64,000 nt of DNA from Actinomycetes bacterium (GTDB taxonomy: Bacteria; Actinomycetota; Acidimicrobiia; Acidimicrobiales; Bog-793), in contig JAJZBI010000001.1 in assembly GCA_021798985.1 (NCBI GenBank), positions 194,444-258,443 on the forward strand, written 5' to 3'. Below are positions 14,311 through 37,546 of this stretch, piece by piece. The first letter of the stretch is position 1, and every line of letters starts with the position of its first letter. A model generated the notes under the pieces. The model was given only the letters and a program-made list of their open reading frames with translations, did not search any database and was not told the origin of the DNA. The position numbers and the translations under genes are program-made.

Positions 14311-15258
14311 TCACGCGCCCCGGCGGGCGCGGGCGGCGCCCCGCCCAGCGCGCGACCGCTCCGGCGCGTAGCGCTGGGTAAGCCGCACCACCAGCCGGGC
14401 CGCGAGCACGAGCCCCAGGACGAGCACCACGAGCAGCACGGAGGAGTCGAAGGCGAGGTTGCGCACCGCCTGGGTCGGCTCGTTCCAGAACGTCCAGGTG
14501 GCGTAGGTGAGGTAGGGGACCGGGGCGTGGGTGAGCGCGCCGCTCGGATAGCTATTCGAGAAGCCGGCGGTGTACAGCAGCGGTGCGGTCTCCCCGACCG
14601 AGATCGCGAGGGCGACGATGATCCCCGTCGCCATCCCCGGCACCGCCGAGCGGACCACGATCTTTCGCAAGAGGTAGGTCTTCGCCATCCCGAGCGCCTC
14701 GCCGCCCTCCCGATAGGCAAGTGGGACCTGGTTGAGGGCGATCTCGGTCGACTTGGCGACGTAGGGGACGACGAGGAGCGACAGCACGATCAGCGCCGCG
14801 AGCAGCGAGAAGCCCCAGTGCAGCCCGACGACGAGCGCCACGTAGCCGGTGTAGCCGAAGACGATCGAGGGGATGCCCGACAGCACCTCCGATGCGCTCC
14901 GCAGCACGGCGGTGAGCGGGCTCGGCCGTGCCATCTCGGAGAGGAAGAGCCCGGTGCCGATGCCGACGAGCCCCGCGAGGATGCCGACGCCGAGCATCAG
15001 TACGAAGGTTCCGACCACCGTGTTCGACAGCCCGCCGCCGACCCCATTGGTCGGCTCGGTGAAGATCGACCATCTCCAGCCCGGGATCGCGCTCTGCACC
15101 ACGCCCTCGAGGACCCAGATCACGACCGCGACGAGCAGCGCCAGGCCGAGACCGCACAACGACCACCACAGCGCCGAGCGAACGCGCCGGCTCCAGGCGA
15201 TCGAGCCGGCCGGAGGAGCGACCGGCCCGGCGAGCACTCTTGTCGTGCTGGCCATCAA
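14311..15258 (-). CDS. pstA: Phosphate ABC transporter permease
   Basis: LSGIPSIVFG, YREGGEALG, GETAPLLYT. Confidence 0.93.
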   Translation of the reverse strand: MMASTTRVLAGPVAPPAGSIAWSRRVRSALWWSLCGLGLALLVAVVIWVLEGVVQSAIPGWRWSIFTEPTNGVGGGLSNTVVGTFVLMLGVGILAGLVGIGTGLFLSEMARPSPLTAVLRSASEVLSGIPSIVFGYTGYVALVVGLHWGFSLLAALIVLSLLVVPYVAKSTEIALNQVPLAYREGGEALGMAKTYLLRKIVVRSAVPGMATGIIVALAISVGETAPLLYTAGFSNSYPSGALTHAPVPYLTYATWTFWNEPTQAVRNLAFDSSVLLVVLVLGLVLAARLVVRLTQRYAPERSRAGRGAARARRGA

Positions 15259-16316
15259 AAGCCCACCCCAACGGGCAGCGCCGCGCCGCGCGCCGAACGG
15301 CGGACGAGGAGCCGGGCGGCGACGTTGACCGCCAAGGTGATCACAAGGAGCACCAGCGCCGCTTCCGACAACGTCCTGGTGGAGAAACCGGTCGGGTCGC
15401 TCTGGGAGGAGTCCAGCAAGGTGACGATGGCCGCGGCGATCGTGGTGGTTGACCCGTAGATGTTGTGCGCCAGCTGCAGCGTGCTGCCGCTCACGAGCGC
15501 GACGGCGATCGTCTCGCCGAGAGCGCGCCCGAGGCCGAGCACCAGCGCCCCGATCACCCCCGTCCGGATCCAGCGAAACTGCACCGTAAAGAACACTTCG
15601 CTGCTCGTCATGCCGAGCGCCTCTGCGCCCTCTCGCGTGGCCTCGGGGACCTGGCGCAACAGGTCGCGAGCCGTCGCTGCGATGATCGGGATGATCATCG
15701 CAGCGAGGATGATCCCGGCACTCAGCAGTCCCTGGCCATAGCCGTGGTCACCGCGGAAGATGTCAAGAGGCGGGACATTGGGCAGGTGGCTGAGTGCCGG
15801 GTAGATCGTGCGCGCCAGCCACGGCCCGAAGGTGAATACGCCGAAGAGCCCGATGACGACGCTCGGGATGCCGGCCAGGATCTCAAGGACCAGGCCGACG
15901 AGGCCCGAGAGCACCCGGGGCAGCTTCTCGACGATGAAGATCGCTGCGCCGACCGCGACGGGAAAGCCAACGATGACCGCGATCGCCGAGGTCTCGAGGG
16001 TGCCGAGAATGAGCGGCAGCGCCCCGTAGTTCGCATCCGGCGGGTGCAGCACCCCGCCGGTGCGCACCGGCGGGGAGTAGAAGCTCCCGAGGTTCCACTG
16101 CGTCCCGGTGAGGAAGCCCCAGCCGTTGTAGCGAATCGCCGGGAGCGCCTCGATCAGCAAGACGATCACCATCGCGACGAGTGCGCCGAGTGGGATGACC
16201 GCCGACGTGGTGGTGGCGATCCGCAACAGCCGTTGGGCGAGGCCGTGCAGCGAGCGCTCGCGCTCCGGCGCGTTCGGCCCCGCGGCGAGCTGCGCTGTCT
16301 TCTTGGATTCGCTCAT
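15255..16316 (-). CDS. pstC: Phosphate ABC transporter permease
   Basis: YGALPLILGT, LAGIPSVVIG, GRALGETIAV. Confidence 0.95.
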   Translation of the reverse strand: MSESKKTAQLAAGPNAPERERSLHGLAQRLLRIATTTSAVIPLGALVAMVIVLLIEALPAIRYNGWGFLTGTQWNLGSFYSPPVRTGGVLHPPDANYGALPLILGTLETSAIAVIVGFPVAVGAAIFIVEKLPRVLSGLVGLVLEILAGIPSVVIGLFGVFTFGPWLARTIYPALSHLPNVPPLDIFRGDHGYGQGLLSAGIILAAMIIPIIAATARDLLRQVPEATREGAEALGMTSSEVFFTVQFRWIRTGVIGALVLGLGRALGETIAVALVSGSTLQLAHNIYGSTTTIAAAIVTLLDSSQSDPTGFSTRTLSEAALVLLVITLAVNVAARLLVRRSARGAALPVGVGF

Positions 16317-16353
16317 TGCTCCCTAGCTCGATCAACGACTGGCCTCGCGCCAA

Positions 16354-16385
16354 TCGGTGCGGTGCACCGGAGTGCACCGCACCGA
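16354..16385 (-). terminator. 14-bp perfect hairpin between pstS and pstC (partial terminator or mRNA stabiliser)
   Basis: TCGGTGCGGTGCAC-CGGA-GTGCACCGCACCGA just downstream of the pstS stop. Confidence 0.65.
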
Positions 16386-16402
16386 GGCGACGAGTGGGGG
16401 GA

Positions 16403-17578
16403 CTAGTGGATCTGCTTCAGCAGGTCGACCGCGATCGCCATGGCGCCGGGAGCCAGCGGGTGGAAGTAGAACTTCGTGAGGTCCGCCGACGACGAGCCGT
16501 GGCGAGGGTCGATGCCCCAGGCGAGGAACGCCTGGATCGCCTTGGCAACCTGGGGGTTCGACTGGTTGGCGTTGACGATCGCGTACTCGAAGTTGACGAT
16601 CGGGTAGCCGTACTTCGCCGACTTGGAGTTGATCAGCGAGATCGCCCCGGTGCTCGGGATCTTCTTGTAGCTCGCCACTTCCGAGGAGATGTTCCCCGGG
16701 GTCGGCAGCACGAAATTGCCCGAGCCGTTCAAGAGCTTGGCGTCGCCGAGCCCAGCCTTCAGCGCGCTGCGCAGCCAGCTGATCCCGATGTAGGCGACGC
16801 ACCCAGGGGTCTTCTCGCAGCCAGCGAGCATGCCGCCGTTGCCCTGCTCCGCCAGTCCGTTCGGCACGCTCGGCCAGCTGACCGAGGTGTTCGGGCCGCC
16901 GTGCGAAGGCACCCACGAGGAGGGGTCCTGGAACGCGAGGTACGAGCTGAACATGAAGGTGTCGCCACTGCCGTCCGAGCGGTGGAAGGGGACGATCTTC
17001 ATCGCCGGCAGCTTCACGCCCTTGTTGAGGCTCGCGATCGCCGGATCGTTCCACTTGGTGATCGAGCCGTCGTAGATGCCCGAGAGCACCTTGGCGTCGA
17101 GGTTGAGGTGCTTGACCGACAAGCCGGGGAGGTTGTAATCGATCTGTTGCGCGGAGACGTCGACGGGGATGTCGAGGAGGTTCTTCGGCGCGCTCGCAGG
17201 CAGGTAGGCGTCCGAGGCGCCGATCTGCACCGTGCCGTTGCTGGCGTCCGAGATGCCCGCACCCGAGCCGGTCCCTGCGGTCGTCACCTTGGTCGCGTGG
17301 TACTGGCTCGCCCAAGTGCTGATCACCGGGTACAGCAGCGTCGACCCGGTCTCGAGCAGGGAGACGCCTGACGGGGGCTTCTCGAGCGAGCTCAGCTGCT
17401 TCTCGACCGAGGCGTAGGCGTTCGTCTTCGTCGCCGCCGGGTGCTTCTTGTGCGCGGTCGACGCGCTGGCGATCCCAGCGGTCGCCGCAAGCGCCGTCGT
17501 GCCGGCAAGGCCGGCGAGTGCAGCACGGACCCAAAGGGCGTTGCGCCGGGAGGGGGCGCGCTTCGTCAAAGCTTGCAT
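16403..17578 (-). CDS. pstS: Phosphate-binding protein
   Basis: ETGSTLLYP, GTGSGAG, GASDA, HRSDGSGDT, YPIVNFEY. Confidence 0.96.
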   Translation of the reverse strand: MQALTKRAPSRRNALWVRAALAGLAGTTALAATAGIASASTAHKKHPAATKTNAYASVEKQLSSLEKPPSGVSLLETGSTLLYPVISTWASQYHATKVTTAGTGSGAGISDASNGTVQIGASDAYLPASAPKNLLDIPVDVSAQQIDYNLPGLSVKHLNLDAKVLSGIYDGSITKWNDPAIASLNKGVKLPAMKIVPFHRSDGSGDTFMFSSYLAFQDPSSWVPSHGGPNTSVSWPSVPNGLAEQGNGGMLAGCEKTPGCVAYIGISWLRSALKAGLGDAKLLNGSGNFVLPTPGNISSEVASYKKIPSTGAISLINSKSAKYGYPIVNFEYAIVNANQSNPQVAKAIQAFLAWGIDPRHGSSSADLTKFYFHPLAPGAMAIAVDLLKQIH

Positions 17579-17686
17579 CGCGTTCGATGCTCCTTTCGCT
17601 TCCCCGCAAGGGGATCGTGGATGTGGGGCAGTTGCACGCCGACGCCGGCCGTCCGTCTCGGCAGCGCCGGTCGGTTCTTCCTCCGC

Positions 17687-18511
17687 CTATTGGCGGATCA
17701 GTGCGCCCGCCTCTCCGAGCAGGTACCGGGCGGTCTCTTGGCGCTTTGGCCGCTCGAAGAGGGCGTTGGTGGCTCCGGTCTCGACCAGCTGACCTTCGGA
17801 GAAGAGGATCAGGTTGTCCGAGAGCCGCTTGGCCTGGGCGAGGTTGTGCGTGACGATGATCACCGTCAGCTCGGGGGTGAGCCGGCGTACCAGCTCCTCG
17901 ACCGCTTCGGTCGAGCGCGGATCGAGCGATGACGTTGGCTCGTCGAGCAGCAGCACCTCCGGTTCCACGGCGAGCGCGCGAGCCAGGCAGAGCAGCTGCT
18001 GCTGTCCACCGGAGAGCCGGAAGGGCGAGTCGTTGAGGCGGTCAGCGACCGCGCTCCACAGGCCCACCTGCGCGAGATAGGTCTCCGCCACATCGCGCAA
18101 CTGGGAGCGGCGCGCCATCTTGTGGGCCTTCACACCGGCAATGACGTTGTCCTGGATGGACATCGGGAAGGGGTTGGGCCGCTGGAAGACCATCCCGACG
18201 CGTCGGCGGAGCACGAGCGGATCGACGGAGGGCGCATGGATGTCCTCGCCCTCGAGGGTGATCTCCCCGCGCCGCCAAAAACCCCGCACCTTGTCGTTCA
18301 TCCGGTTGAGCGAGCGCAAGAACGTGGTCTTGCCCGAACCCGACGGGCCGACAAGGGCGGTGATCGTGCCACGCCGGAACGCCACGGTGATGTCCCGCAT
18401 CACGGTGGCGTCGCCGAAGCCGAGCACGAGGTCGGAAGCGGCCATCACCTCCGACGGGCCTGCTGGGCGCTCGACGGCGGGGAGCGGTGCGACGTTGTCC
18501 ATCTCGGCCAC
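17687..18511 (-). CDS. pstB: Phosphate ABC transporter ATPase
   Basis: GPSGSGKT, VGMVFQRPNPFPMSI, LSGGQQQ, LLLDEP; GTG 18511 or ATG 18502 start. Confidence 0.95.
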   Translation of the reverse strand: MAEMDNVAPLPAVERPAGPSEVMAASDLVLGFGDATVMRDITVAFRRGTITALVGPSGSGKTTFLRSLNRMNDKVRGFWRRGEITLEGEDIHAPSVDPLVLRRRVGMVFQRPNPFPMSIQDNVIAGVKAHKMARRSQLRDVAETYLAQVGLWSAVADRLNDSPFRLSGGQQQLLCLARALAVEPEVLLLDEPTSSLDPRSTEAVEELVRRLTPELTVIIVTHNLAQAKRLSDNLILFSEGQLVETGATNALFERPKRQETARYLLGEAGALIRQ

Positions 18512-18518
18512 GTCAGGC

Positions 18519-18584
18519 AAGGTAGCGGGGCGACCTGAATCGAATTCGAACGCCAAGTAACCGGTCGATGACCTGCCGGTGAAA
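18519..18584 (-). promoter_or_regulatory. PHO-box array (five 11-bp units) plus -10 element of the pst operon
   Basis: Minus strand: TTTCACCGGCA GGTCATCGACC GGTTACTTGGC GTTCGAATTCG ATTCAGGTCGC in exact 11-nt phase, then TACCTT 7 nt before GTG 18511. Confidence 0.7.
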
Positions 18585-18691
18585 CCTTCTGGCAACTCCC
18601 GCCGGCCTCGGGCGCTCGAGCGGTCTCGGCCGAAGGCGCGGCGGGTGCGCGGTGCCGGTCGCGCGCCGGCCAGCGACGATACGGTGCGATC

Positions 18692-19417
18692 GTGGCCGAT
18701 GAGGCGGCGCGCTCCGCGCAGTTCATGTCCCAGGTCGATCGCAAGGTGATCCAGCTGTTCGCGCTCGTCGGCGACGCCGCCAGCGGCGCGACGCACGCCC
18801 TGCTCGCTGGAGATCGCGGCGCCGCCACGACCCTGATCGCGCGCGAGGAGGAGGTCGACGCGCTTTACCGCGACGTCGAGGCGAGCGTGCAGGACTACAT
18901 CGCCTCGCAGCGCTGCCCGCCCGACCTGCTGCGCTACCTGGTCGCCGTGCTGCGCCTGCTGCCCGAACTCGAGCGCAGCGGCGATCTCGTCGAGCACATC
19001 GCACGCCGCTCCACGAGCACGCTCGCGGCCGAGATGTCGGCGCGAGCGCGCGGCCTGATCGAGCAGATGGGCGAGGTGGGCGCGGCGATGTGGCACATGG
19101 CGGCGGACGCCTACGGCGAGCGATCACCCGAGGTCGCGACCCGCCTCGATGAGCTCGACGACGAGATGGACGAGCTGCACGGCACCTTCATGGACGAGCT
19201 CGCGAGCGGTGCGATGGCGCTCCCCCTCGTGATCGAGCTCGTGCTGATCGGGCGCTTCTACGAGCGCCTCGGGGACCACGCGGTCAACATCGCCCGCCGG
19301 ATCCCCCCACTCGTCGGTGACGCGTCGGCACGCGAGGGCGAGCAGGAGAACCGCGCGCCCGTGCGCCCGCGGCGGCCGGGCCCAGGCCTGCGCTGGCGCG
19401 CCGAGCGCTCGACTTGA
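18692..19417 (+). CDS. phoU: Phosphate signalling protein PhoU
   Basis: ELERSGDL and YERLGDHAVNIA repeats; DDEMDEL. Confidence 0.9.
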   Translation: MADEAARSAQFMSQVDRKVIQLFALVGDAASGATHALLAGDRGAATTLIAREEEVDALYRDVEASVQDYIASQRCPPDLLRYLVAVLRLLPELERSGDLVEHIARRSTSTLAAEMSARARGLIEQMGEVGAAMWHMAADAYGERSPEVATRLDELDDEMDELHGTFMDELASGAMALPLVIELVLIGRFYERLGDHAVNIARRIPPLVGDASAREGEQENRAPVRPRRPGPGLRWRAERST

Positions 19418-21104
19418 ATCGCCGCTCGGCATAGAAGGGGCGCAGCTTGAGGCGCACGGGGGGCAGGTGCCCATACAGGAGCATCGCCTCCCCGAGCGGC
19501 AGCCTGCGGATGGCGTCGGCGGGGGCGAGCGCAGCGGTGCTCGGGCTGAACGTGGTGCTGCGCCGGCCCTCGCCGTCGACGCTCGTGCTCTCACTCCAGC
19601 GCTCCTGCTCGCCGGCGAGCTGGCGGACGTGCTCGAGGGTCGCCGGATCGGCGACGCCCGAGCAGATGAGCTTCGCCCGGTGGTTGTTCACAACGGTGGC
19701 CGCCCGCGGCCCGTAGCGCGCCTGCACCTGTGCGAGGTCCTGCCACAGCGTCACGAGCTGCACGCCGTGGGCGGCGGCCGTGGCGGCCACGGCGTCGAGG
19801 TTGGCGAGCGGCGCGATGTTCGCGGCCTCGTCCAACACGACGAGCAGCGGCGGATCCAGCGGTGCGCCGCGACGCGCCGACTCGCTGAAGGCGGCATCGA
19901 GGAAGCTCCGCAGCAAGGTGACGAACACGGGCTGCAAGCGCTCTTGCTCGTGAGCGGGAGCGACGAGATAGCAGGTGTCGCTGCGTCCGCTCGCCACGAC
20001 GCTGACGGGGTCGATGTCGCTGCCGCTCGCGGAGGCCAACACGAGCGGATCGGCGAACGCCGCGAGGATCGTCTCGGTCGTCGCGTAGACCGAGCTGCGC
20101 TGGCGCTCGTCGCGCCGCGCGCTCGCGCCGAAGGCCCGCCGTGGCGCATCACCGGCGCCCATGGCCAAGATGGCGTCCACCTCGTCGATCTCCTCGGTGT
20201 CGACCCAGCGCACGACGTCGCAGATCGAGGCTCCGGCGAGCGCCGCTGCGTGCAGCAACGGCGCCAGCAGCTTCTCGGCGGTCGCGTACCAGAACGCGCC
20301 ATCCTCCAGGCCGCCGCCGGCTCGGGCGACCGAGCAGAGCGCCGCCGCCACCCGCCGCGCCCCAGCCCAACTCACCGCGTCCGCGAGCGGCGACCAGGTG
20401 TCGCCCGGCACCCCGCTCACCCCGGTCGGGTCGTAGACGAAGACACGGCCGCGCGCCGCGCGCGCCGCGCTCGTCGCGCGCACGAGATCGCTCTTCACGC
20501 TGGCGGCCACGGCGGGTCCGTGCCAGTCGAGCAGGGCCGGGATCGCAAGACCGCTCGTCTTGCCGGACTGGGTCGGCCCGGCGACGAGCAGCGAGTGGTT
20601 GCGCTCGACGGCAATCAGCCGGCCGGCCACCCGGCCCACGACGATCCGGCCCACCGGTGCCGACGCGACGAGCAAGGGGGCAAGGTCGCTCCGGCGCGCC
20701 CAACGCGCCCCGTTGTCGCGCACCGACCGAGATGGCCGCCGCACGGCTCGAGCACCCCGTGCGGCGCCCACCGCCATCGCCGCGACCGCGACCGAGGCGG
20801 CGAGCACGAATGACAGCGCGAGCCAGCAATCTGCCGCCCGGGCCGCCGATGACGCCCCGATCGCGTGCAGCGCGCTCGGCAGGTCCAAGTGATCGGCCAC
20901 GAGCGTCCCAGTCAGTCGCGGCACCTCCGCGAGGTCGAGGAACGGGCGCGGCCTGCCGGCCAAGGTGCCCGCTATCCCGGCAACCAACCAGCCGCACAGA
21001 CCGACGAGCGCGGCGAGGCCGAGGACCCCCGCCATGACGGCGGTGAGCGCGCGGTCGCCAGCTGGCGCGGGGCCGGCCCGCCGGGGCTGGGGAGTCGGCG
21101 TCAT
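19284..21104 (-). CDS. VirD4/TraG-like type IV coupling protein
   Basis: N-terminal TMs, GARWA, Walker A GPTQSGKT, DPTG, WSPL, Walker B LVVLDEAAN, QDLAQVQARYG. Confidence 0.9.
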   Translation of the reverse strand: MTPTPQPRRAGPAPAGDRALTAVMAGVLGLAALVGLCGWLVAGIAGTLAGRPRPFLDLAEVPRLTGTLVADHLDLPSALHAIGASSAARAADCWLALSFVLAASVAVAAMAVGAARGARAVRRPSRSVRDNGARWARRSDLAPLLVASAPVGRIVVGRVAGRLIAVERNHSLLVAGPTQSGKTSGLAIPALLDWHGPAVAASVKSDLVRATSAARAARGRVFVYDPTGVSGVPGDTWSPLADAVSWAGARRVAAALCSVARAGGGLEDGAFWYATAEKLLAPLLHAAALAGASICDVVRWVDTEEIDEVDAILAMGAGDAPRRAFGASARRDERQRSSVYATTETILAAFADPLVLASASGSDIDPVSVVASGRSDTCYLVAPAHEQERLQPVFVTLLRSFLDAAFSESARRGAPLDPPLLVVLDEAANIAPLANLDAVAATAAAHGVQLVTLWQDLAQVQARYGPRAATVVNNHRAKLICSGVADPATLEHVRQLAGEQERWSESTSVDGEGRRSTTFSPSTAALAPADAIRRLPLGEAMLLYGHLPPVRLKLRPFYAERRFKSSARRASAGLGPAAAGARARGSPARPRVPTRHRRVGGSGGRC

Positions 21105-22339
21105 CGCTGGGCTCCGCGCAGCGCGGCATCGGTGTCAACGAGCGACCGCTCGAGCGGGCTGAGCCGGTGCTCGACGAGGTGCGACCGGGCGCCGACGCGC
21201 CACAGCGCCGTCCCCCGCGGAAGGCGGGCGAGGGATCCTGCCTCCCGACGCCCGAGCCCGAGCGCCCGCTCGGCGGCGCCGACCTCCGCCGGGGCTTGAG
21301 CAAAGCACACGACGGTCTCGGAGTCGGCGAGCAGCCCCTCGGCGACCTGTGCCGCCACGCTCCCCCGTTCGCCAGCCGCGGCAAGATCCGAAACACGATG
21401 CACGACGGCGATGTTGGCGACGCCGTTCGCCCTTGCCAACTTCCATGATGACTGCAAGAAGCGCGCCACTCCGAGGTCGCCGAGCACGGCCCAGGCCTCG
21501 TCCACCACGAGCAGGCTCTGCTGGCCGCGCCGACTCGCCACCTTCCAGATCGGCTCGAGCGCCGCGATGGTGCAGGCGACGAGGGCCGGCAGCGCGCTCG
21601 AGCGGAAGAGCGCCGAGAGATCGACGACGAGGGCGGTTGCGTCGAGGCGCAGCCCGGGGCTCGTCGCGTCGTCGAACATGCCGCGCAGCTCGCCGTGGAC
21701 GAGGCGACGAAGCCCGAGCGCCAGCGAGCGGGTCTCCTCGGCGAGGGCCCGCCGCCCCGTGCCGAGCGTCCGAGCGGCCGCTTGGCTCGGCTCGAGGAGC
21801 GCCGCGACGACCTCCTTGACGGTCGGCACGCCGCGCGCGGCGCGGGTCGCCTCGTCGAGCGCGGCCTCGAGCCCTCCGTGCTCGACCGGGGCGAGCGGGC
21901 GCTCGAGGCAGGTCGTCGCCAGGCTCGACAGCAGTGCCAGGCGTCGGCCCGCGGCGTCATCACCCGTTGCCACCTCGAGCGGATTGAGCCGAACCGTTCC
22001 CGCCGGGCGCAGGGCGATCGGCTGAGCGCCGAGCGCCTCGGCGAGCGCGCCGTACTCCCCCTTTGGGTCGAGCACGACGATTCGCCGGCCGAATGCCGCA
22101 TGGCGATAGCAGTAGGTCTTGACGAGCGCGCTCTTGCCCCGACCGATCTGACCGAGCACGAGCAGGTTCGGGTTGGTCACGACGCCCGCGCCGTAGAGGG
22201 CGAACGGGTCGTGCACGAAGGCGCCGCCATGGAGGTCCCGGCCGACGAGCACGCCGTGGCGAAGCAGGGGGCGGCTCGCCATGAAGGGAAAGGCGCCGCC
22301 GAGCTGGGCCGTGGTCGCCTCGTGGGCGGGCGCTTTCAT
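21101..22339 (-). CDS. VirB4-like ATPase (C-terminal ATPase half)
   Basis: HEATTAQLGGAFPF, GQIGRGKS, DPKGEY, RLNPLE, LVVDEAW, KLARANG. Confidence 0.88.
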   Translation of the reverse strand: MKAPAHEATTAQLGGAFPFMASRPLLRHGVLVGRDLHGGAFVHDPFALYGAGVVTNPNLLVLGQIGRGKSALVKTYCYRHAAFGRRIVVLDPKGEYGALAEALGAQPIALRPAGTVRLNPLEVATGDDAAGRRLALLSSLATTCLERPLAPVEHGGLEAALDEATRAARGVPTVKEVVAALLEPSQAAARTLGTGRRALAEETRSLALGLRRLVHGELRGMFDDATSPGLRLDATALVVDLSALFRSSALPALVACTIAALEPIWKVASRRGQQSLLVVDEAWAVLGDLGVARFLQSSWKLARANGVANIAVVHRVSDLAAAGERGSVAAQVAEGLLADSETVVCFAQAPAEVGAAERALGLGRREAGSLARLPRGTALWRVGARSHLVEHRLSPLERSLVDTDAALRGAQR

Positions 22340-23697
22340 GCGCACCCCCGTCCGAGCGGCAAGGCGGTCACCATGGCCTCGTCGTGCTCCCCATCGAGAC
22401 GCCGCAGGTCGAGTCGCGCCACGGCGCCGAGCTGTTCGAGGCGACCGCAGGCGCTCTCGAGCTCGTCGGGCGTCTCGGCGCTGACGGTGAGATATCCCGA
22501 GAAGCGGTAGCCGGCGTGCCCGGCGGCAAGCTCCAGCTCCCGGCGGGTGACCGCCTCGTCCTCTCGATGCGCTCGCGCCGAGACGGCAAAACCGTGCCGG
22601 CGCTTCAGCTCGGCGTCAGCCACCCGGGAAGTCCGGGCCTGCTCGGCGGCCCGCTGGGCCGCAAGCGCCGGCACCGGAGCCATGACGAGCGAGATGGTCC
22701 GGCGCTCGGCGCCAGAGAGCACCAGGGGCGCCAAGAAGTCGCTCCCGACCTCTTGGCGCGGCCACTCCGCCACCCAGTAGCTGGCGTGCCACATGCCGCC
22801 AGCCCTCACGCGGTCCCAGCGCCGTTCGCCGATGCTGGGCCACGGGGCGCTCGTACCGAAGCGGTCGTTCGGCCGAGCTTCGCCAAAGCGGCGGACGAGC
22901 CGGGCGAGCGCGTCTGCCGACAGCGGCCCGGTGGGTGACAGCCCCGCCGCCCGGCACCGCTCGGCGAGGGCGTCGAGCTCGTCGCCGAGGAGCCCGGCCC
23001 GCTCGGTGGACAGGCCGCGGATCAGGCGGAGGCTCCGGATCGACAGGACGAGCACCAGCTCGTGGGTGCTCGTGGTGCGCTCGGCTCGGACGAGCGCGGC
23101 ATACGATGCCCGCGCGCCGGCCAGGGCGTCGCCCGACATCGGCGCCGCGACAAGCCCGGGGGGGGCGAGGGCGGGATGCACACGCTCGATCCACTGGATC
23201 CGGTGCACGACCGCCGCTCGCTCGGCGAGCGCGTCGAGGACGGCGCACCACGCGCCCACCCGCTGGCTCCTGGCCGCGTCATCGAGAAGGACAAAGGGAA
23301 CCTCGCCGACGGCAAGCGCCGCGCTCGCAGTGCCGTGGGCCGGGTCGAGCACGACCCCGAAGCGGCGACCCAAGACATCGGCGTCGACCACCTGCTCGCC
23401 ACCCGGGCCGCGCCGGGCGAACGGCCGCCGCTCGCCGCGCCGGCGGCGAAGGAGGAACCTGGCGACGACGGGAGCCCACTCTTCGGTACTCCGACCCCTG
23501 ATGGGGAGCCAGACGATGCCGGCCGCAACCAGGACGAGCACCGTCGCGCCAGCGAGCCCCACCGGGCGTTGGCTGCGGACGAGCAGCACCGCGGCGACCA
23601 GCGCCACCCCGAGGACGACGAGCTGACCGGTGCGCTGACCAGCGACCAGTCCACGCCGATCTCTCGGGCCGAAGCGGTAGCGCGCTCCCTCACTCAT
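22336..23697 (-). CDS. SCO6880-like/PrgI-like membrane protein of conjugation clusters
   Basis: YRFGPRDRRG, two TMs, YWVAEWPR, ELAAGH, GYLTVSA; ATGA-coupled to the VirB4-like gene. Confidence 0.75.
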   Translation of the reverse strand: MSEGARYRFGPRDRRGLVAGQRTGQLVVLGVALVAAVLLVRSQRPVGLAGATVLVLVAAGIVWLPIRGRSTEEWAPVVARFLLRRRRGERRPFARRGPGGEQVVDADVLGRRFGVVLDPAHGTASAALAVGEVPFVLLDDAARSQRVGAWCAVLDALAERAAVVHRIQWIERVHPALAPPGLVAAPMSGDALAGARASYAALVRAERTTSTHELVLVLSIRSLRLIRGLSTERAGLLGDELDALAERCRAAGLSPTGPLSADALARLVRRFGEARPNDRFGTSAPWPSIGERRWDRVRAGGMWHASYWVAEWPRQEVGSDFLAPLVLSGAERRTISLVMAPVPALAAQRAAEQARTSRVADAELKRRHGFAVSARAHREDEAVTRRELELAAGHAGYRFSGYLTVSAETPDELESACGRLEQLGAVARLDLRRLDGEHDEAMVTALPLGRGCA

Positions 23698-24829
23698 CAG
23701 GTGCCTCGTCGTCGTCCCAGGCTGCGCCGGCGCTGGCGCGTCGCTCGGCGGCGCGCTGTTTGAGCTCGTCGATCCGTTCCTTCAGGATCGGGTCGTCGAG
23801 CCCGATGTCCATGCCGTCCTCGTTGGTCGCCCAGGGGATGAGATCGATCGGCGACGGCTCTTCGGCCGCTCGCGGTCGGGCGGTGAGATAGCTGAACCCA
23901 TAGCCAGCGCCCACGACCGCGCGCGAGGCGCGTCGGCCCAGTCCCTCGAACGCGGCGAGGGACTGGCCGTCGACGAGCGGGATCAGGCGGAACAAGGTCA
24001 AGGGGGACAAGACGGCGAGGGCGAGAAGCGCCAAGGCCTGGAACGCCCCGGTGAGCCCGCCAGCCGGGCGCGCCGTATCGGCCGCCAGCACCAAGACCGC
24101 CACGACCACGAGCTTGCTCAGCACCAATGCGGCGATCGTCTCGGCAAGGCGCCTCGCCCAGTGGGCCGTCGCGTCCCACACGATCCCGACCAGCGCGAGT
24201 GGAAGGAACAGCGTCGCGAGGCTGATCGCCGCCGAGCGGAAGGCCAGCTCGAACCAGAGCACCGCGGCGACGAGGACCGCGAGGCCGGCGATAAACACCC
24301 CGGCGAACGAGCCCATGACCTGGTGCATCGCGCCCGGTCCCGACAACAGCGTCGTGAGGTTGGTAAGCAGCTGGGAAAGCGACGGCTCGCCGTGTACGAG
24401 CAATGCGCTCGAGGCCTCGTCGGTGAGCGTCATGACGAGCGAGACGAGCGCGGTCGCCGCGGCCGACAGCAACACCGCCACCGGCAAGCGCAAGAAAGCG
24501 GCCCGGAGCAGTCTGCGGAGGTCGTGGCGCATGAGCGCCTGCAGCGCCGCGAGGAGGAGGAAGGGCAGCGCCACCAGCTCGGCGATATGGACCATCTCGT
24601 CAAATGCCATCGCGAACCCGGCGCCAAAGTCCGGCCGCCCGGCCGCGCCGAGTGAGGTCCCGAGCTGGTCGATGAGCCCGACGGCCCCCTGGATGACAAA
24701 GCGTGTGAGGAAGCCGAAGAACTCAGCGACAAGGCCCACACCCGTCGGGAGCGGGGAGATCGGGCCAAGGCCGCCGATTGGGGAGGGGTGGAGGGGGACC
24801 GACCCTCCCAAGGTGAAGAGCCCCGCCAC
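23690..24829 (-). CDS. VirB6/TrbL-like polytopic membrane protein
   Basis: About 7 TMs, LWFELAFRSAAI...FLPLAL...W...WARRL pattern; operon position. Confidence 0.7.
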   Translation of the reverse strand: MAGLFTLGGSVPLHPSPIGGLGPISPLPTGVGLVAEFFGFLTRFVIQGAVGLIDQLGTSLGAAGRPDFGAGFAMAFDEMVHIAELVALPFLLLAALQALMRHDLRRLLRAAFLRLPVAVLLSAAATALVSLVMTLTDEASSALLVHGEPSLSQLLTNLTTLLSGPGAMHQVMGSFAGVFIAGLAVLVAAVLWFELAFRSAAISLATLFLPLALVGIVWDATAHWARRLAETIAALVLSKLVVVAVLVLAADTARPAGGLTGAFQALALLALAVLSPLTLFRLIPLVDGQSLAAFEGLGRRASRAVVGAGYGFSYLTARPRAAEEPSPIDLIPWATNEDGMDIGLDDPILKERIDELKQRAAERRASAGAAWDDDEAPDE

Positions 24830-24830
24830 C

Positions 24831-25157
24831 TCAATTCACCCGCTGGCCGGCGGCGAAGAAGAAGTTGAGGATCGTCGGTGCGGCACCGATGACGAGCGCC
24901 GCGGCGGCCGAGACGAGCACCGCGCGCTTGCCGGTCGAGGTGTGCTGGTAGTTGTTCGTGTGCGCACCGAGCGCCCAGGTGGCAGCGCCGATGACGATGC
25001 CGGCCAAGGCGGCAAGCAGGCCCCACCAGCCGAGGCCGTTGACCAAGCTCTGCAGCACGTTGCCACCAGGTAGCCCAGACGAGTCGGGCGAGAACGAGAC
25101 GACGCCGCGAGCCAGCGCGGCGGCGACAGGGGGGACAGGGGCGAAGAGCAACTGCAT
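24831..25157 (-). CDS. VirB2/TrbC-like pilin (DUF6112-like)
   Basis: PDSSGLPGG, two hydrophobic helices separated by GKR; GGAGG RBS before ATG 25157. Confidence 0.72.
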   Translation of the reverse strand: MQLLFAPVPPVAAALARGVVSFSPDSSGLPGGNVLQSLVNGLGWWGLLAALAGIVIGAATWALGAHTNNYQHTSTGKRAVLVSAAAALVIGAAPTILNFFFAAGQRVN

Positions 25158-25453
25158 CGGGACCACCTCCGAGCGGCCGGTGACGCCGGCCGGTTGACAC
25201 CGGCGGACGCCGGTTGGACAGGACGGGCGGCGCAAGGGCTCGCCGAAGAGGCAGAAGCCTCAGTTCGGGGGGTGCGCGTTGGGCACCGACAAGCGCGGAC
25301 GAAACGTCCTCGGAGGCAGGCGAGAATCGCCTGCGGGCTGCACGATAGCCACGGCGCCCGCGCTTCCTCAAGGGCCAGGCTGTTCACCCTCGCGGACGCG
25401 AAGGCGCAGAGCTGCAATGCTGGAGTCGTGAGCAGGAACATCGGTCCGGCGCG

Positions 25454-26698
25454 ATGAAGGTCTCCTCGCTCGATCTCGCCGCTGCCAGCGCGATCGCCGT
25501 CGTCGTGTTCTTCGTTGCCTTTCTCCTCGGGGGACGTCGCGGGATCACGCCGCTGCGCCAGCGCCTCTCGGCGCTGGCCGCGCGCCTCGGCGCGAGCACC
25601 GCAGATCCCGATCCGCGCACCGTCGAAGAGGCCCTCACCCGCGTCGAGCGGGCGACCGATCGGGCCGCTGAAGCCGTGGCCGAGTCGAGTGCGGATGCCA
25701 TCCGCTTGCGGCGCGCACTGGACGCCCTGCCCCAGGCAGTGATCGTCTGCGACGAGCGAGGAGAGCCCGCCTTCCGCAACGCCCGAGCGATCGCCCTCAT
25801 GGGCAACCGCCACGGTGACGCCCTCGCCGCACAGGCAGTGGACGAGCTGCTCGCGAACACCGCGCCGGGCTCCTCGGAGGAGCGAACGCTCGAGCTCTAC
25901 GGCCCCCCGCGGCGCACCTTGAACGTCCGCACCCAGAGCCTGGACAACGGCCAACGCGCGCTCGGCGTGATCGCGGTGATCGAGGACGTCTCAGAGCGCC
26001 GTCGCCTGGAGGAGGTGCGGCGGGACTTCGTCGCCAACGTGAGCCACGAGCTGAAGACCCCAATGGGAGCGCTCGGGCTCCTCGCCGAGACCCTCCTCGC
26101 CGAGACCGAGCCGGAGGTCTCCCAGCGTCTCGCGCAGCGGATCCACACCGAGGCGTTCCGGATCTCTCGAATCATCGACGATCTGCTCGATCTCTCCCGC
26201 ATCGAGAGCGAGGAGTCACCGCCGCGCGAACCGGTGCTCGTGAACCTCGTCATGGCCGAAGCGGCCGAGCGCGTCCGCGCTGCAGCCGAGCAACGCAGCG
26301 TGGAGGTCGTGCTCGAGGAGCCTTCGCCGCCGGTCGCCGTCCTCGGCGACCGGCGTCAGCTCACCTCGGCGATCTACAACTTGCTCGAGAACGCCGTGAA
26401 GTTCTCCTACGAGGGTGGCACCGTCGAATGCCGGGGTGAGGCCACCGCGGACGAGGTCGCGATCACCGTCCGCGACAAGGGGATCGGCATTCCCGCGCGC
26501 GACCTCGAACGGATCTTCGAGCGCTTCTACCGCGTCGACCACGGCCGCAGCCGCTCGACGGGCGGGACCGGCCTCGGTCTCGCTATTGTCCGCCACGTCG
26601 CCCACAACCATCACGGCACGGTCCACGTCGATTCGCGCGAAGGCGAGGGCGCAACCTTCTCGCTGCGGCTTCCGCTGCAGCCACGAGCCGAGGGATGA
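25454..26698 (+). CDS. senX3: Sensor histidine kinase SenX3/PhoR
   Basis: RRDFVANVSHELKTP, NLLENAVKF, DKGIGI, FERFYRVD, GGTGLGL. Confidence 0.92.
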   Translation: MKVSSLDLAAASAIAVVVFFVAFLLGGRRGITPLRQRLSALAARLGASTADPDPRTVEEALTRVERATDRAAEAVAESSADAIRLRRALDALPQAVIVCDERGEPAFRNARAIALMGNRHGDALAAQAVDELLANTAPGSSEERTLELYGPPRRTLNVRTQSLDNGQRALGVIAVIEDVSERRRLEEVRRDFVANVSHELKTPMGALGLLAETLLAETEPEVSQRLAQRIHTEAFRISRIIDDLLDLSRIESEESPPREPVLVNLVMAEAAERVRAAAEQRSVEVVLEEPSPPVAVLGDRRQLTSAIYNLLENAVKFSYEGGTVECRGEATADEVAITVRDKGIGIPARDLERIFERFYRVDHGRSRSTGGTGLGLAIVRHVAHNHHGTVHVDSREGEGATFSLRLPLQPRAEG

Positions 26699-27498
26699 CG
26701 TTGACGGCGCTGAACGACTCAGCGACGAGTCTCGATGGGACGGTGCAGGTGCTCCTCGCCGAGGACGAGGAGTCCTTCGTCGATGCGCTCGTCGTCGGCC
26801 TGGAACGTGAGGGGTTTCGCGTCACCGTCGCCCGCGACGGCGCCGAGGCGCTCGAGCGCTTCGACTCCGAGCCGTTCGACCTTGTCTTGCTGGACGTGAT
26901 GCTGCCCAAGATGTCCGGCCTCGACGTCTGCAGGAGCATCCGCACCCGCTCAGCGGTCCCGATCATCATGGTCACGGCAAAATCCACCGAGATCGACACG
27001 GTCGTCGGCCTCGAGGTCGGCGCCGACGACTACGTGGCCAAGCCCTACCGGCTCCGCGAGCTGGTCTCGCGCATGCGGGCGGTCCTGCGCCGCATGCCGC
27101 GCGAGGCGATCCGGGCCGAGGAGTATCCGACGGGTGCCATCCCGGCGGTCCAGCTGCCTCCACTGCCGGCTTCGCCACCGCCCGACACCGCCCTCGAGGT
27201 CGGCGAGGTCCGCCTCGACCCCGAGCGGCACGAGTGCACCGTGCGCGGCATCGAGGTGCAGCTTCCTTTGAAGGAATTCGAGCTGCTCGAGCAGCTGCTG
27301 ACGAGCGCTGGCCGGGTCGTGACGCGGGACTCCTTGATCGACCGCGTCTGGGGCGAGGACTACGTCGGCGACACGAAGACCCTCGACGTCCACATCAAAC
27401 GCCTGAGATCTCGCATCGAGGAAGACCCGTCCAAGCCACGGCTCATCACGACCATCCGCGGCCTCGGCTACCGCTTCGAGGCGCCGCGCGGACGGTGA
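26695..27498 (+). CDS. regX3: OmpR-family response regulator RegX3/PhoP
   Basis: LLDVMLP, LPLKEFELL, LIDRVWGEDYVGDTKTLDVHIKRLR. Confidence 0.93.
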   Translation: MTLTALNDSATSLDGTVQVLLAEDEESFVDALVVGLEREGFRVTVARDGAEALERFDSEPFDLVLLDVMLPKMSGLDVCRSIRTRSAVPIIMVTAKSTEIDTVVGLEVGADDYVAKPYRLRELVSRMRAVLRRMPREAIRAEEYPTGAIPAVQLPPLPASPPPDTALEVGEVRLDPERHECTVRGIEVQLPLKEFELLEQLLTSAGRVVTRDSLIDRVWGEDYVGDTKTLDVHIKRLRSRIEEDPSKPRLITTIRGLGYRFEAPRGR

Positions 27499-36478: not shown

Positions 36479-37546
36479 GTGATCAAGTACCTCGGTTCCA
36501 AGCGGCGCCTCGTCCCCGTCCTGAGTGAGCTGCTGACTCGATCCGGTGCTGCCACGGCTCTGGACCTGTTCACCGGCACCACCCGGGTCGCACAGGCATT
36601 CAAACAGGCAGGGGCGTTCGTGACCGCGGTCGACACCGCCCGCTACAGCGAGATCCTCGCGCTCGCGCATGTCGCCACCGACCCGAAGAGCATTTCGACC
36701 GACCGTCTCGAAGGCGAGCTTGCCCGCCTGAACCGGCTCCCCGGCGAACCCGGCTATTTCACTGAGACATTCTGCATCAAGTCCCGGTTCTTCCAGCCGG
36801 CGAACGGAGAGCGCATCGACGCGATCCGCGACACGATCGAGACGGAGCTCAAAGGGGACCCGATCTACCCCCTCGTGCTGACGAGCCTCATCGAGGCGGC
36901 CGACCGCGTCGACTCCACGGCTGGAGTCCAGATGGCCTACATGAAGACGTGGGCACCGCGCTCGTATCGGCCGCTCGAGCTCCGAGCTCCCCAGCTCTGG
37001 GCAGGGCCCGGCGCCGCACGACGTGCCGACGCTCTCGACGCTGCGCGCGCCCTGGCGCCCGTCGACCTCGCCTACCTTGACCCGCCGTACAACCAGCATC
37101 GCTACTTCACGAACTACCACGTCTGGGAGACGCTGGTGGCCTGGGACGCCCCCGAGCACTACGGCGTTGCCTGCAAGCGAATCGACAGCCGTGACCCCGC
37201 GACCAAAAGCGTGTTCAACCAGAAGCGCTCCATCGCAGCAGCGCTGCGCGAGCTCGTCGCGACGGTCCGAGCCGAGACGCTCATCGTGTCTTACAACGAC
37301 GAGGCGTGGCTCGAGCTCGCGGAATTGGTCGACCTGTGCGCCGTGCGCGAGGCGGTGACGGTCCTGTCGTTCGACTCCAAGCGCTACGTGGGGGCCCAGA
37401 TCGGGATCCACAACCCGAAGGGCGAGAAGGTGGGCACGGTCTCGCACCTGCGCAACCTCGAGTACCTCGTGGTGAGCGGGCCGCGCCAGCTCGTCGCGCG
37501 CATGACCGCCCCATTCGCCGCTGCGCGGTTGGCGCTGCCCGCTTAA
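36479..37546 (+). CDS. DNA adenine methyltransferase (D12/FokI-like class)
   Basis: IKYLGSK, DLFTGT motif I, YLDPPY motif IV, VSYNDE. Confidence 0.9.
   Translation: MIKYLGSKRRLVPVLSELLTRSGAATALDLFTGTTRVAQAFKQAGAFVTAVDTARYSEILALAHVATDPKSISTDRLEGELARLNRLPGEPGYFTETFCIKSRFFQPANGERIDAIRDTIETELKGDPIYPLVLTSLIEAADRVDSTAGVQMAYMKTWAPRSYRPLELRAPQLWAGPGAARRADALDAARALAPVDLAYLDPPYNQHRYFTNYHVWETLVAWDAPEHYGVACKRIDSRDPATKSVFNQKRSIAAALRELVATVRAETLIVSYNDEAWLELAELVDLCAVREAVTVLSFDSKRYVGAQIGIHNPKGEKVGTVSHLRNLEYLVVSGPRQLVARMTAPFAAARLALPA

Follow-up and report, generated by a model that had tools for sequence, protein, structure and literature searches.

Why does a set of conjugation-type genes lie in the middle of a phosphate-uptake and phosphate-sensing locus, and what might the host use it for? 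This question is raised by a 64,000-nucleotide stretch of an Acidimicrobiales genome (assembly GCA_021798985.1, contig JAJZBI010000001.1, positions 194,444 to 258,443), hereafter the window, in which five minus-strand open reading frames (ORFs) at 19284-25157 lie between phoU and senX3-regX3. Neighbouring frames overlap by 4, 10 or 8 nt or are spaced by 1 nt. The initial annotation, made from the sequence alone, had read these genes as an orphan and probably domesticated type IV secretion system (T4SS). We report here that the operon is very probably a domesticated, vertically inherited T4SS core, that the same clade keeps a relaxase and a further coupling protein at a second chromosomal locus, and that the operon may be a conjugation apparatus turned to the movement of relaxase-piloted DNA. 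The window genome and the relatives named below are metagenome-assembled genomes labelled Acidimicrobiales or Acidimicrobiaceae.

Five genes encode the inner-membrane core of a T4SS

The two ATPases of the operon were assigned by family matches and motifs. Gene 5 encodes a VirD4-type protein with Pfam matches to PF02534 (2.3e-37), TraG-D_C (3.2e-18) and TrwB_AAD_bind (1.6e-12), two N-terminal transmembrane (TM) segments, and intact Walker A (GPTQSGKT) and Walker B (LLVVLDE) motifs. The product of gene 4 scores above the Pfam cut-offs for AAA_10, P-loop_TraG and DUF87 and carries the Walker motifs GQIGRGKS (A) and LLVVDE (B). It covers only positions ~400-730 of the VirB4/TraC models of NCBIfam, and reaches 47 bits against a cut-off of 643 for the single-chain VirB4 family (TIGR00929).

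Gene 3 belongs to the NCBIfam family SCO6880_fam (3.3e-63, 214.3 bits, cut-off 60), with a score that is low for the family; a second copy in the same genome, described below, scores 453.8 bits. An AlphaFold model built from an alignment of 46 SCO6880-type proteins was confident (pLDDT 87.2, pTM 0.85), and its best PDB matches by Foldseek were all R388 TrwK/VirB4 (E 2.9e-10). In a VIA-align superposition, residues 91-453 of the model matched TrwK residues 14-384 (Z 24.1, rmsd 3.8 Å, 328 aligned), and residues 22-64 of the protein are two TM helices. On this model, the SCO6880 family is predicted to be a VirB3-like hairpin followed by the VirB4 N-terminal domain. Since the next gene is the C-terminal ATPase, VirB4 is here encoded as two genes, and the two-gene arrangement was seen in every locus inspected. 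As weak evidence in addition, no SCO6880-ATPase fusion was found in a search of longer proteins. The sole longer match proved to be a TrbL-SCO6880 open frame, and open frames of 871-946 aa were rejected as VirB4 fusions, being read-through into the TrbL frame. PDB sequence searches with the SCO6880 and TrbL profiles returned nothing useful.

The SCO6880 model also superposes, TM hairpin included, on EccE of the ESX-3/ESX-5 type VII systems (6umm_A, Z 17.5 over residues 22-453; 7b9f_E, Z 12.2), and the protein has a weak Pfam EccE match (E 2.2e-4). EccE and the VirB3-VirB4 N-terminal module may have a common ancestor.

The two remaining proteins were assigned with less certainty. Gene 2 encodes a protein with ~6 TM segments and weak matches to Pfam TrbL (5e-3, 17 bits, cut-off 25.9) and NCBIfam SCO6881_fam (6e-7, 28.8 bits, cut-off 325). 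Its AlphaFold model is mediocre (pLDDT 70.4), and R388 TrwI/VirB6 was the sole recurring natural family among the top Foldseek matches (E 0.07-0.19, probability 0.57-0.99). Gene 1 matches Pfam DUF6112 (9e-8, 32.3 bits, cut-off 25) and encodes two hydrophobic helices; among its structural neighbours in the Atlas are clusters labelled TrbC/VirB2 and T4SS_pilin, with TM scores of 0.64-0.84. The modelled likeness to a VirB2/TrbC-pilin hairpin is suggestive only, because this fold is so simple and short.

The gene order is that of actinobacterial SCO6880-type systems, with DUF6112 upstream and a short VirB4-type ATPase and type IV coupling protein (T4CP) downstream, and a family scan found no equivalents of VirB5, 7, 8, 9, 10 or 11 in the operon. 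Together, the five genes make up an intact operon that specifies the cytoplasmic-membrane core of a monoderm T4SS of the actinobacterial SCO6880 type. This inner-membrane core is complete, with two motor ATPases (three genome-wide). The family matches and motifs bear out the initial annotation of a five-gene T4SS operon with intact Walker motifs at this site.

The operon is fixed in the phosphate locus and vertically inherited

SCO6880 homologues were found in every one of the 24 further genomes of the family, and 7 of the 16 other families of the order have them as well. Across the phylum the SCO6880 family is patchy, being present in 72 of 401 sampled genomes (a tally that includes the four unpublished genomes G041, G088, G291 and G185). 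Patchiness, which the initial annotation had named as a sign against domestication, is thus a property of the SCO6880 family at the level of the phylum and is not seen within the bacterial family.

All 12 loci examined in the family have the order ctaA-ABC2-ABC-regX3-senX3 and, divergently, DUF6112-TrbL-SCO6880-VirB4C-VirD4, where VirB4C is the C-terminal VirB4 ATPase; no sister genome lacks the operon at this site. Downstream, phoU and/or pstB-pstS-pstC follow in nine of the 12. The wider comparison drew on 185,579 species genomes and used the 80 best species loci; five of the 80 lie on the same contigs as five of the family loci, so the two counts overlap and are not additive. Of the 57 species loci that could be assessed, 55 have a divergent senX3 directly adjoining the DUF6112 gene; the spacer between the two has a median length of ~303 bp. 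The two exceptions are L064, with pstS/pstC in that place, and L090, with senX3 1.9 kb away; the 23 uncounted loci comprise 19 with a short flank and four with no detected DUF6112 despite a long flank. The phoU/pst side is less stable, lying within 3 kb of VirD4 in 25 of the 80 loci and not in 41 (14 unassessable).

Five genomes of the same order without the cluster provide a comparison. In four of them phoU adjoins senX3-regX3 and in one it adjoins regX3, the order usually being pstCAB-phoU-senX3-regX3. This adjacency looks like the empty site, and it identifies the two-component system, by linkage, as the phosphate one.

Moreover, the operon has diverged together with its neighbours. Pairwise protein distances correlate with those of SenX3 (Pearson) at 0.84 for VirB4C, 0.86 for SCO6880 and 0.86 for VirD4, with RegX3 at 0.93. 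In a FastTree tree of VirB4C with 127 rows, a single group of 89 (support 91) takes in all sen/pho-linked rows; an IQ-TREE analysis under LG+C20 with 66 rows recovered a group of 32 together with a single long-branched intruder (SH-aLRT 89). VirB4C homologues were found in 204 plasmid records, and the best of them was 42% identical; together with the trees, this speaks against closest homologues on complete integrative and conjugative elements (ICEs), another outcome that the initial annotation had considered. Relaxed selection is likewise not seen. Ratios of nonsynonymous to synonymous substitution (dN/dS, Nei-Gojobori, against the sister species) are 0.19 for VirD4, 0.089 for VirB4C, 0.154 for SCO6880, 0.145 for the TrbL-like protein and 0.034 for DUF6112, and those of six flanking genes are 0.04-0.16 (dS 0.38-0.65).

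The operon is, then, a vertically inherited core feature of a large Acidimicrobiales clade under purifying selection, and we hold with high confidence that it is a domesticated T4SS core. The proposal of a domesticated chromosomal T4SS-like operon in the pst-phoU-senX3-regX3 locus is upheld by synteny, co-divergence and dN/dS.

In one sub-clade of the sen-linked loci (L051, L058, L070, L074, L077, L091, L096, L097, L102 and L107), VirB4C lies several kb from the nearest detected upstream operon gene. The gap is ~3-9 kb in the six loci with an SCO6880-like match, and holds ABC-ATPase-like genes in L096 and L107; L077, L097 and L102 have no SCO6880, TrbL or DUF6112 match upstream, and L102 has a partial second VirB4C match.

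Mobility genes are absent from the window and present on another contig

None of the 54 window ORFs scanned matched a relaxase, integrase, replication or wall-hydrolase family, and no att-like repeats were found, in agreement with the initial annotation. No tRNA gene lies nearer than 31162 in the window. The GC content of the operon is only mildly raised (0.73-0.75 vs 0.68-0.72). The rest of the window is housekeeping, with cytochrome oxidase, E1 dehydrogenase, pstBSCA, ABC transporters, ctaA and glycerol kinase. Genome-wide, the relaxase family PF03432 has no match, and matches to PF08751 and PF13814 are confined to contigs other than that of the window. Of the parts of an ICE or conjugative plasmid, the operon thus has a VirB4-type ATPase and a T4CP; a relaxase, integrase, att site, tRNA or replication gene within the element is lacking, and the operon does not display patchy horizontal spread with a variable site.

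Contig C7 of the same genome (L023, C7:5000-24999; L109) carries a second, ICE-like T4SS cluster, which includes genes for DUF6112, SCO6880-like, VirB4C, VirD4, NlpC/P60, ParB-like and TetR proteins. A 1305-aa TrwC ORF lies ~13 kb from it. The VirB4C of this cluster is joined by short branches to copies found in four other families, which fits the expectation for recent horizontal spread.

A second core locus encodes a relaxase and another coupling protein

TrwC (PF08751) was detected in 40 of 41 genomes of the family, many with a single match, and the sole miss is a 68%-complete genome. In the window genome, the conserved copy lies on contig C35 (L164, 7699-12713) in the order typA, pafB, pafC, a 571-aa relaxase and a convergent 451-aa T4CP (T4CP2). 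The relaxase scores 213.8 bits on the MobF model NF041492 (cut-off 100). T4CP2 has no TM segments and carries the Walker A motif GPPRSGKT. The initial description of the operon as an orphan without a relaxase therefore holds for the window and fails for the genome, which has a core MobF/TrwC relaxase and a second T4CP on C35 and the ICE-like copy's own TrwC on C7.

The relaxase-T4CP2 pair is syntenic in all 11 relatives fetched, with a pafC-like gene alongside in 10, and in all three distant sen-linked genomes fetched (T4CP2 itself in 5/5). All 16 orthologues retain MOBF motif III, HRTSRxxDPHLH(T/S)H, and 15 retain motif I, YY, the alignment of the remaining one not extending over that motif; the APKSVS motif is present wherever the alignment reaches it. 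By these motifs, the relaxase looks catalytically competent. The dN/dS values are 0.30 for the relaxase and 0.20 for T4CP2.

Orthologues of T4CP2 (42-83% identity) occur in 23 of 24 genomes of the family (f1) and in families f2, f8 and f15, and none were found in the other 13 sampled families of the order. The families with T4CP2 are the same set as those with the closest T4SS relatives, and the f8 genome G031 is sen-linked. In the phylum sample, matches of at least 40% identity were found in just four other genomes, including the unpublished G088. Thus, the clade that keeps the operon also keeps a second conserved chromosomal locus, beside pafBC, for a motif-intact MobF/TrwC relaxase and a TM-less T4CP. 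The adjacent pafB-pafC genes encode actinobacterial DNA-damage-response regulators.

In the tree, G038, a genome of family f15, branches as sister to the sen-linked clade. Here, an 810-aa TrwC gene is divergent from and adjacent to the DUF6112 gene, in the place where the window has senX3, and beside it lies a 48% homologue of the LPG_synthase_TM gene that neighbours the relaxase locus of the window genome. This arrangement is a probable intermediate of domestication in a sister family, and we infer that one ancestral conjugative module was fixed in the chromosome and later split into two loci.

Further features of the G038 locus (L027, G038:C26, 4777-14119) are as follows. After the divergent TrwC gene come DUF6112/TrbL-SCO6880, a gene for an 837-aa surface-type protein with two F5/8 type C domains and Big_3_5, and VirB4C; the locus has no VirD4. 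Its flanks hold LPG_synthase_TM, a sigma factor, flagellin/FliW and MurT.

Layout of the locus and the spacer shared with senX3

Coordinates are collected in Table 1. The ORF coordinates agree with the two structural remarks of the initial annotation, a VirD4 3' end that overlaps phoU and a divergent spacer shared with senX3.

Table 1. Features of the phosphate locus, in positions of the window
Feature	Position	Strand	Remarks
Gene 1, DUF6112	24831-25157	-	108 aa from ATG at 25157, GGAGG 8 nt upstream; ORF to 25235
Gene 2, VirB6/TrbL-like polytopic membrane protein	23690-24829	-	379 aa; true start possibly further downstream
Gene 3, SCO6880-family	22336-23697	-	453 aa; modelled as TM hairpin and VirB4 N-terminal domain
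Gene 4, VirB4 C-terminal RecA-type ATPase	21101-22345	-	414 aa; separate protein
Gene 5, membrane-anchored VirD4-type coupling protein	19284-21104	-	606 aa
phoU	18692-19417	+	PhoU Pfam 1.5e-28; TIGR02135 2.8e-29, under cut-off
senX3	25454-26698	+	HisKA/HATPase/PAS
regX3	26695-27498	+	Response_reg/Trans_reg_C
pstB-pstS-pstC-pstA operon	14311-18502	-	Pfam families
Divergent spacer common to T4SS operon and senX3	25158-25453		296 bp
Five GTTCA-type units, PHO-box-like array 5' of pstB	18535-18589	-	11-nt period; kept in six other genera
Single RegX3/PHO-box-type unit GTTCACC-N4-CG, GTTCACCCTCGCG	25382-25394	+	~60 nt upstream of senX3 ATG; fits the RegX3 site of PMC7884335 (in part)
Conserved senX3-proximal element CTGCAATGCTGG	25412-25423	+	From spacer comparison

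The spacer holds two kinds of element on the senX3 side. The pattern CTGNNATGCT, CTG(C/T)(C/A)ATGCTGG, was found in 39 of the 63 spacers, ~30-45 nt upstream of where senX3 starts. The top 8-mers of the spacers exceeded all 20 shuffles, and the motif GCTGNNATGCTG has no excess elsewhere in the window. The element CTGCAATGCTGG is likely to be the promoter or the 5' end of the senX3 transcript. Just upstream of it, many lineages have three to five TTTCA units with a 10-nt spacing, and the GTTCACC unit of the window occupies this spot. The available part of PMC7884335 gives the RegX3 site as G(T/G)TCAcc-n4-cG, which the pstB array fits as well. In the window as a whole, GTTCACC-N4-CG has 6 matches against 0.65 expected.

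A strict scan for three TTTCA units found them in 16 of 92 loci (L033, L036, L039, L049, L056, L066, L067, L072, L073, L082, L086, L087, L088, L092, L094 and L105), always in the senX3/DUF6112 spacer and on the senX3 strand. With one mismatch allowed, this spacer was the sole site in four of five whole genomes, with none in the controls. The triplet was rejected as a genome-wide regulon motif, as none of the five genomes had a site beyond the senX3 spacer; confined in this way, it is not a general box at that stringency. The arrays are AT-rich within genomes otherwise of ~70% GC, and RegX3 is the obvious candidate binder.

Taken together, the spacer elements point to autoregulation of senX3. 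No conserved PHO box for the T4SS operon was found in the lineage of the window, and a simple promoter and terminator scan of 18.4-25.6 kb gave no promoters and two terminator-like sites, where 2.2 were expected. That phosphate controls the operon itself is plausible, but we regard it with some doubt.

As to the genes around the operon, the best NCBIfam matches of SenX3 and RegX3 are PnpS/PhoR and MtrA/PhoB, under the cut-offs; PstS is over the TIGR00975 cut-off, and PstB scores 332 bits on TIGR00972 (cut-off 343). GC3 of the five operon genes is 0.86-0.88, the same as in the flanking genes. The convergent VirD4 and phoU frames overlap by 134 bp (19284-19417; 140 bp in the sister species), so that the last ~45 VirD4 codons cover the 3' end of phoU. 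Homologues of VirD4 can be aligned up to about residue 560-590, and the tail beyond is not conserved; the part over phoU is rich in Arg, Gly and Ala and not alignable in other genera. This tail may be an untranslated or unselected extension.

The order pstB-pstS-pstC-pstA is unusual and is kept in relatives; the pstB/pstS gap measures 108 nt and is rich in hairpins. Elsewhere in the window, two DNA methyltransferase genes were noted (36479-37546 and 60545-62107; D12-class N6-adenine and N6_N4_Mtase), with no restriction enzyme family among the scanned ORFs neighbouring them. A permissive Rfam scan of 14-31 kb gave two chance-level matches, with no 6C or other RNA.

Proposed function and alternative explanations

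We propose that the operon is a domesticated conjugation apparatus that moves relaxase-piloted DNA, and put the probability of this reading at about 0.5; that the operon works together with the core relaxase on DNA is, we think, an even bet. The two loci would be the split remains of one host-domesticated conjugative element, still acting together. The relaxase would nick an oriT-like (origin of transfer) site in the chromosome and stay on the 5' end of the single-stranded DNA (ssDNA), one or both T4CPs would pass the relaxase-ssDNA complex to the VirB4/VirB6 channel, and the DNA would be pumped out of the cell, to be released or handed to a neighbour. Such a process would be akin to the Neisseria DNA-secretion island or to a host-owned transfer of the Hfr (high-frequency recombination) type. 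Expression of the operon may rise during phosphate starvation, because its promoter region is common with autoregulated phosphate sensor genes. Among the candidate functions, the conserved relaxase would favour the export or transfer of DNA and tell against protein secretion and against the uptake of DNA. The far-reaching version, in which a clade-wide, fixed two-locus apparatus of free-living cells exports or exchanges their own chromosomal ssDNA under starvation or stress, as a host-encoded gene transfer or DNA release independent of mobile elements, seems to us rather unlikely.

Several observations weigh against the proposed DNA movement and its phosphate link. No oriT was identified, the 571-aa core relaxase has no helicase domain, and in the operon the family scan detected neither a wall hydrolase nor a VirB8-like protein nor an adhesin. 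The link between operon and relaxase locus rests in part on adjacency in a single sister genome, and the co-distribution of the two loci may count as a single event, because the families concerned may be one clade. As for regulation, conservation of the GTTCACC unit does not extend to the sister species, the window lineage is without the TTTCA repeat array, and that array, standing at a fixed distance from the senX3 element, may serve senX3 only. Finally, when the similar cmd operon was deleted in Streptomyces, the SLP2 plasmid was transferred as before, and the phenotype concerned development and chromosome segregation (PMC2782261, in part).

The cmd system leads to the first alternative, a housekeeping complex with an intracellular or septal role in segregation, division or envelope organisation, without intercellular transfer and with an unrelated job for the relaxase and T4CP2. 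A role of this kind has been proposed for Streptomyces CmdABCDEF. We consider it unlikely for the window operon. S. coelicolor cmdABCDEF is the closest known system. As described in the available part of the report by Xie, Zeng & Qin (2009, PMC2782261), cmdABCDEF (SCO4126-4131) is a chromosomal, conserved and co-transcribed membrane-protein cluster with the VirB4-like ATPase CmdB; SCO6878, SCO6880 and SCO6881 are linked there with cmdB, cmdC and cmdD by resemblance, and the deletion causes sporulation and segregation defects with plasmid transfer unchanged. That part mentions no relaxase, and pst is mentioned nowhere in the paper. In two genomes of 8-9 Mb, inferred to be Streptomyces, we found a six-gene cmd-like cluster ~11-15 kb from pstSCAB, in the order small proteins, a weak SCO6881-like protein, SCO6880_fam, a VirB4C ATPase and a weak VirD4-like protein. 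This layout and the cmdB/C/D resemblance support the likeness to a cmd cluster near pst to which the initial annotation had pointed. The window operon and the cmd-like cluster thus agree in families and gene order and in being conserved chromosomal operons; the genes of the former belong to the core set and include neither a hydrolase nor an adhesin. They differ in that the cmd-like VirB4C is only 35% identical and sits on a long separate branch within a polytomy, that cmd has six genes, and that the cmd-like cluster is near pst and outside the phoU-senX3 junction. The cmd phenotype is developmental, and these Acidimicrobiales are not known to sporulate. Moreover, a partner relaxase locus is a property of the window clade, none having been described for cmd, and a housekeeping role would leave the co-retained, motif-intact relaxase unexplained.

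A protein-secreting T4SS, in which VirD4 recruits effector, toxin or surface proteins and DNA is no substrate, is improbable in our judgement. T4SSs without a relaxase (MOB-less) have been exapted repeatedly, and protein transfer has been suggested for them in free-living bacteria (PMC3548315, in part); the operon itself has no relaxase, and the 837-aa surface-type protein of the G038 operon would suit such a role. However, no conserved effector or immunity candidates lie beside the operon in the 80 loci, VirD4 retains TrwB_AAD_bind, a domain of the DNA-binding type, and the core relaxase has been co-retained.

Still harder to accept is a phosphate-starvation-induced DNA-uptake machine like ComB or Ced, importing DNA for phosphorus or for transformation. 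The position of the operon inside the Pho locus, divergent to senX3, and the RegX3-type boxes in the common spacer would suit it, and archaeal Ced is a precedent for an exapted import T4SS. So is ComB (PMC3548315, in part). On the other hand, the CedB model matches at just E 0.0023, a relaxase and two T4CPs are export parts rather than import parts, no periplasmic or surface DNA receptor was seen in the operon by the family scan, and the boxes stand at the senX3 promoter.

Finally, a mobile element, whether a decaying ICE remnant or part of a still-mobile one, is contradicted and scarcely credible: the five families all occur typically on plasmids and ICEs of actinobacteria, as the plasmid homologues and the paralogous C7 cluster illustrate, but the operon has intact frames and motifs, dN/dS of 0.03-0.19, one insertion site in 55 of 57 assessable species loci, co-divergence with SenX3, GC near that of its flanks, and no integrase, att site or tRNA.

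Comparison with ICEs, exapted T4SSs and R388

Actinobacterial T4SS-type ICEs and plasmids with a MOBF/TrwC relaxase have been described (Ghinet et al. 2011, PMC3218068, in part), and the C7 cluster is an example. The window operon shares with them DUF6112, SCO6881/TrbL-like and SCO6880 proteins, a short VirB4 ATPase and a T4CP in the same order, and their relaxase family is that of the core locus. In contrast, the ICE-type copies have NlpC/P60 and ParB-like genes and a long relaxase-helicase, none of which is in the window operon. They are also patchy, with short-branched VirB4C across families, whereas the window operon is fixed in its site and co-diverges with its neighbours.

The ComB, GGI (gonococcal genetic island) and Patescibacteria systems, and archaeal Ced, resemble the window operon in being conjugation-derived, fixed in the chromosome and used by the host. 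Features of the window side that set it apart are the split VirB4, DUF6112, two T4CPs, a relaxase at a second locus and the Pho-locus insertion. At the sequence level the window operon belongs to none of them, as the CedB score shows for Ced. Both ComB of Helicobacter pylori and the DNA-secretion GGI of Neisseria gonorrhoeae are exapted T4SSs, and in the GGI the T4SS is paired with a relaxase that DNA export requires (PMC3548315, in part), which is the mechanism proposed here. The chromosomal T4SS of Patescibacteria is likewise monoderm-type, in a cluster without a relaxase (bioRxiv 10.1101/2025.01.22.634366, in part).

Structurally, the nearest comparison is R388 Trw (PDB 8rtb, 7o41-7o43, 8rtd). 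The SCO6880 model superposes on the TrwK N-terminal domain and that of the TrbL-like protein, weakly, on TrwI/VirB6. Sequence identity is 10-19%, and what R388 has as one VirB4 chain is divided between two genes in the window.

Novelty and biological meaning

A literature search found nothing on a Pho-locus T4SS, the SCO6880 fold or T4SSs of Acidimicrobiia, although supplementary gene lists may hold relevant entries. Exaptation of MOB-less T4SSs is already known (PMC3548315; bioRxiv 10.1101/2025.01.22.634366; both in part). New here are the assignment of the SCO6880 fold, the fixed Pho-locus insertion with its empty-site control, and the co-retained MobF/T4CP locus.

MOB-less and chromosomal T4SSs of free-living bacteria are counted in surveys and seldom explained, and for Streptomyces cmd, the only actinobacterial example to have been studied, the phenotype has stood without a mechanism since 2009. 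The SCO6880 family has so far been no more than a name. If SCO6880 is the missing N-terminal half of VirB4 with a VirB3-like hairpin, as the model predicts, such clusters would be true T4SS cores. As a natural case of domestication the locus is clear: it can be compared with what looks like an empty site, its own genome holds a mobile paralogue, and a sister family provides a probable intermediate. The co-retained, motif-intact relaxase and second coupling protein suggest that the cargo is DNA. Should the link to the phosphate sensor prove functional, nutrient sensing would be joined to DNA export or exchange in abundant Actinomycetota of soil and mine drainage.

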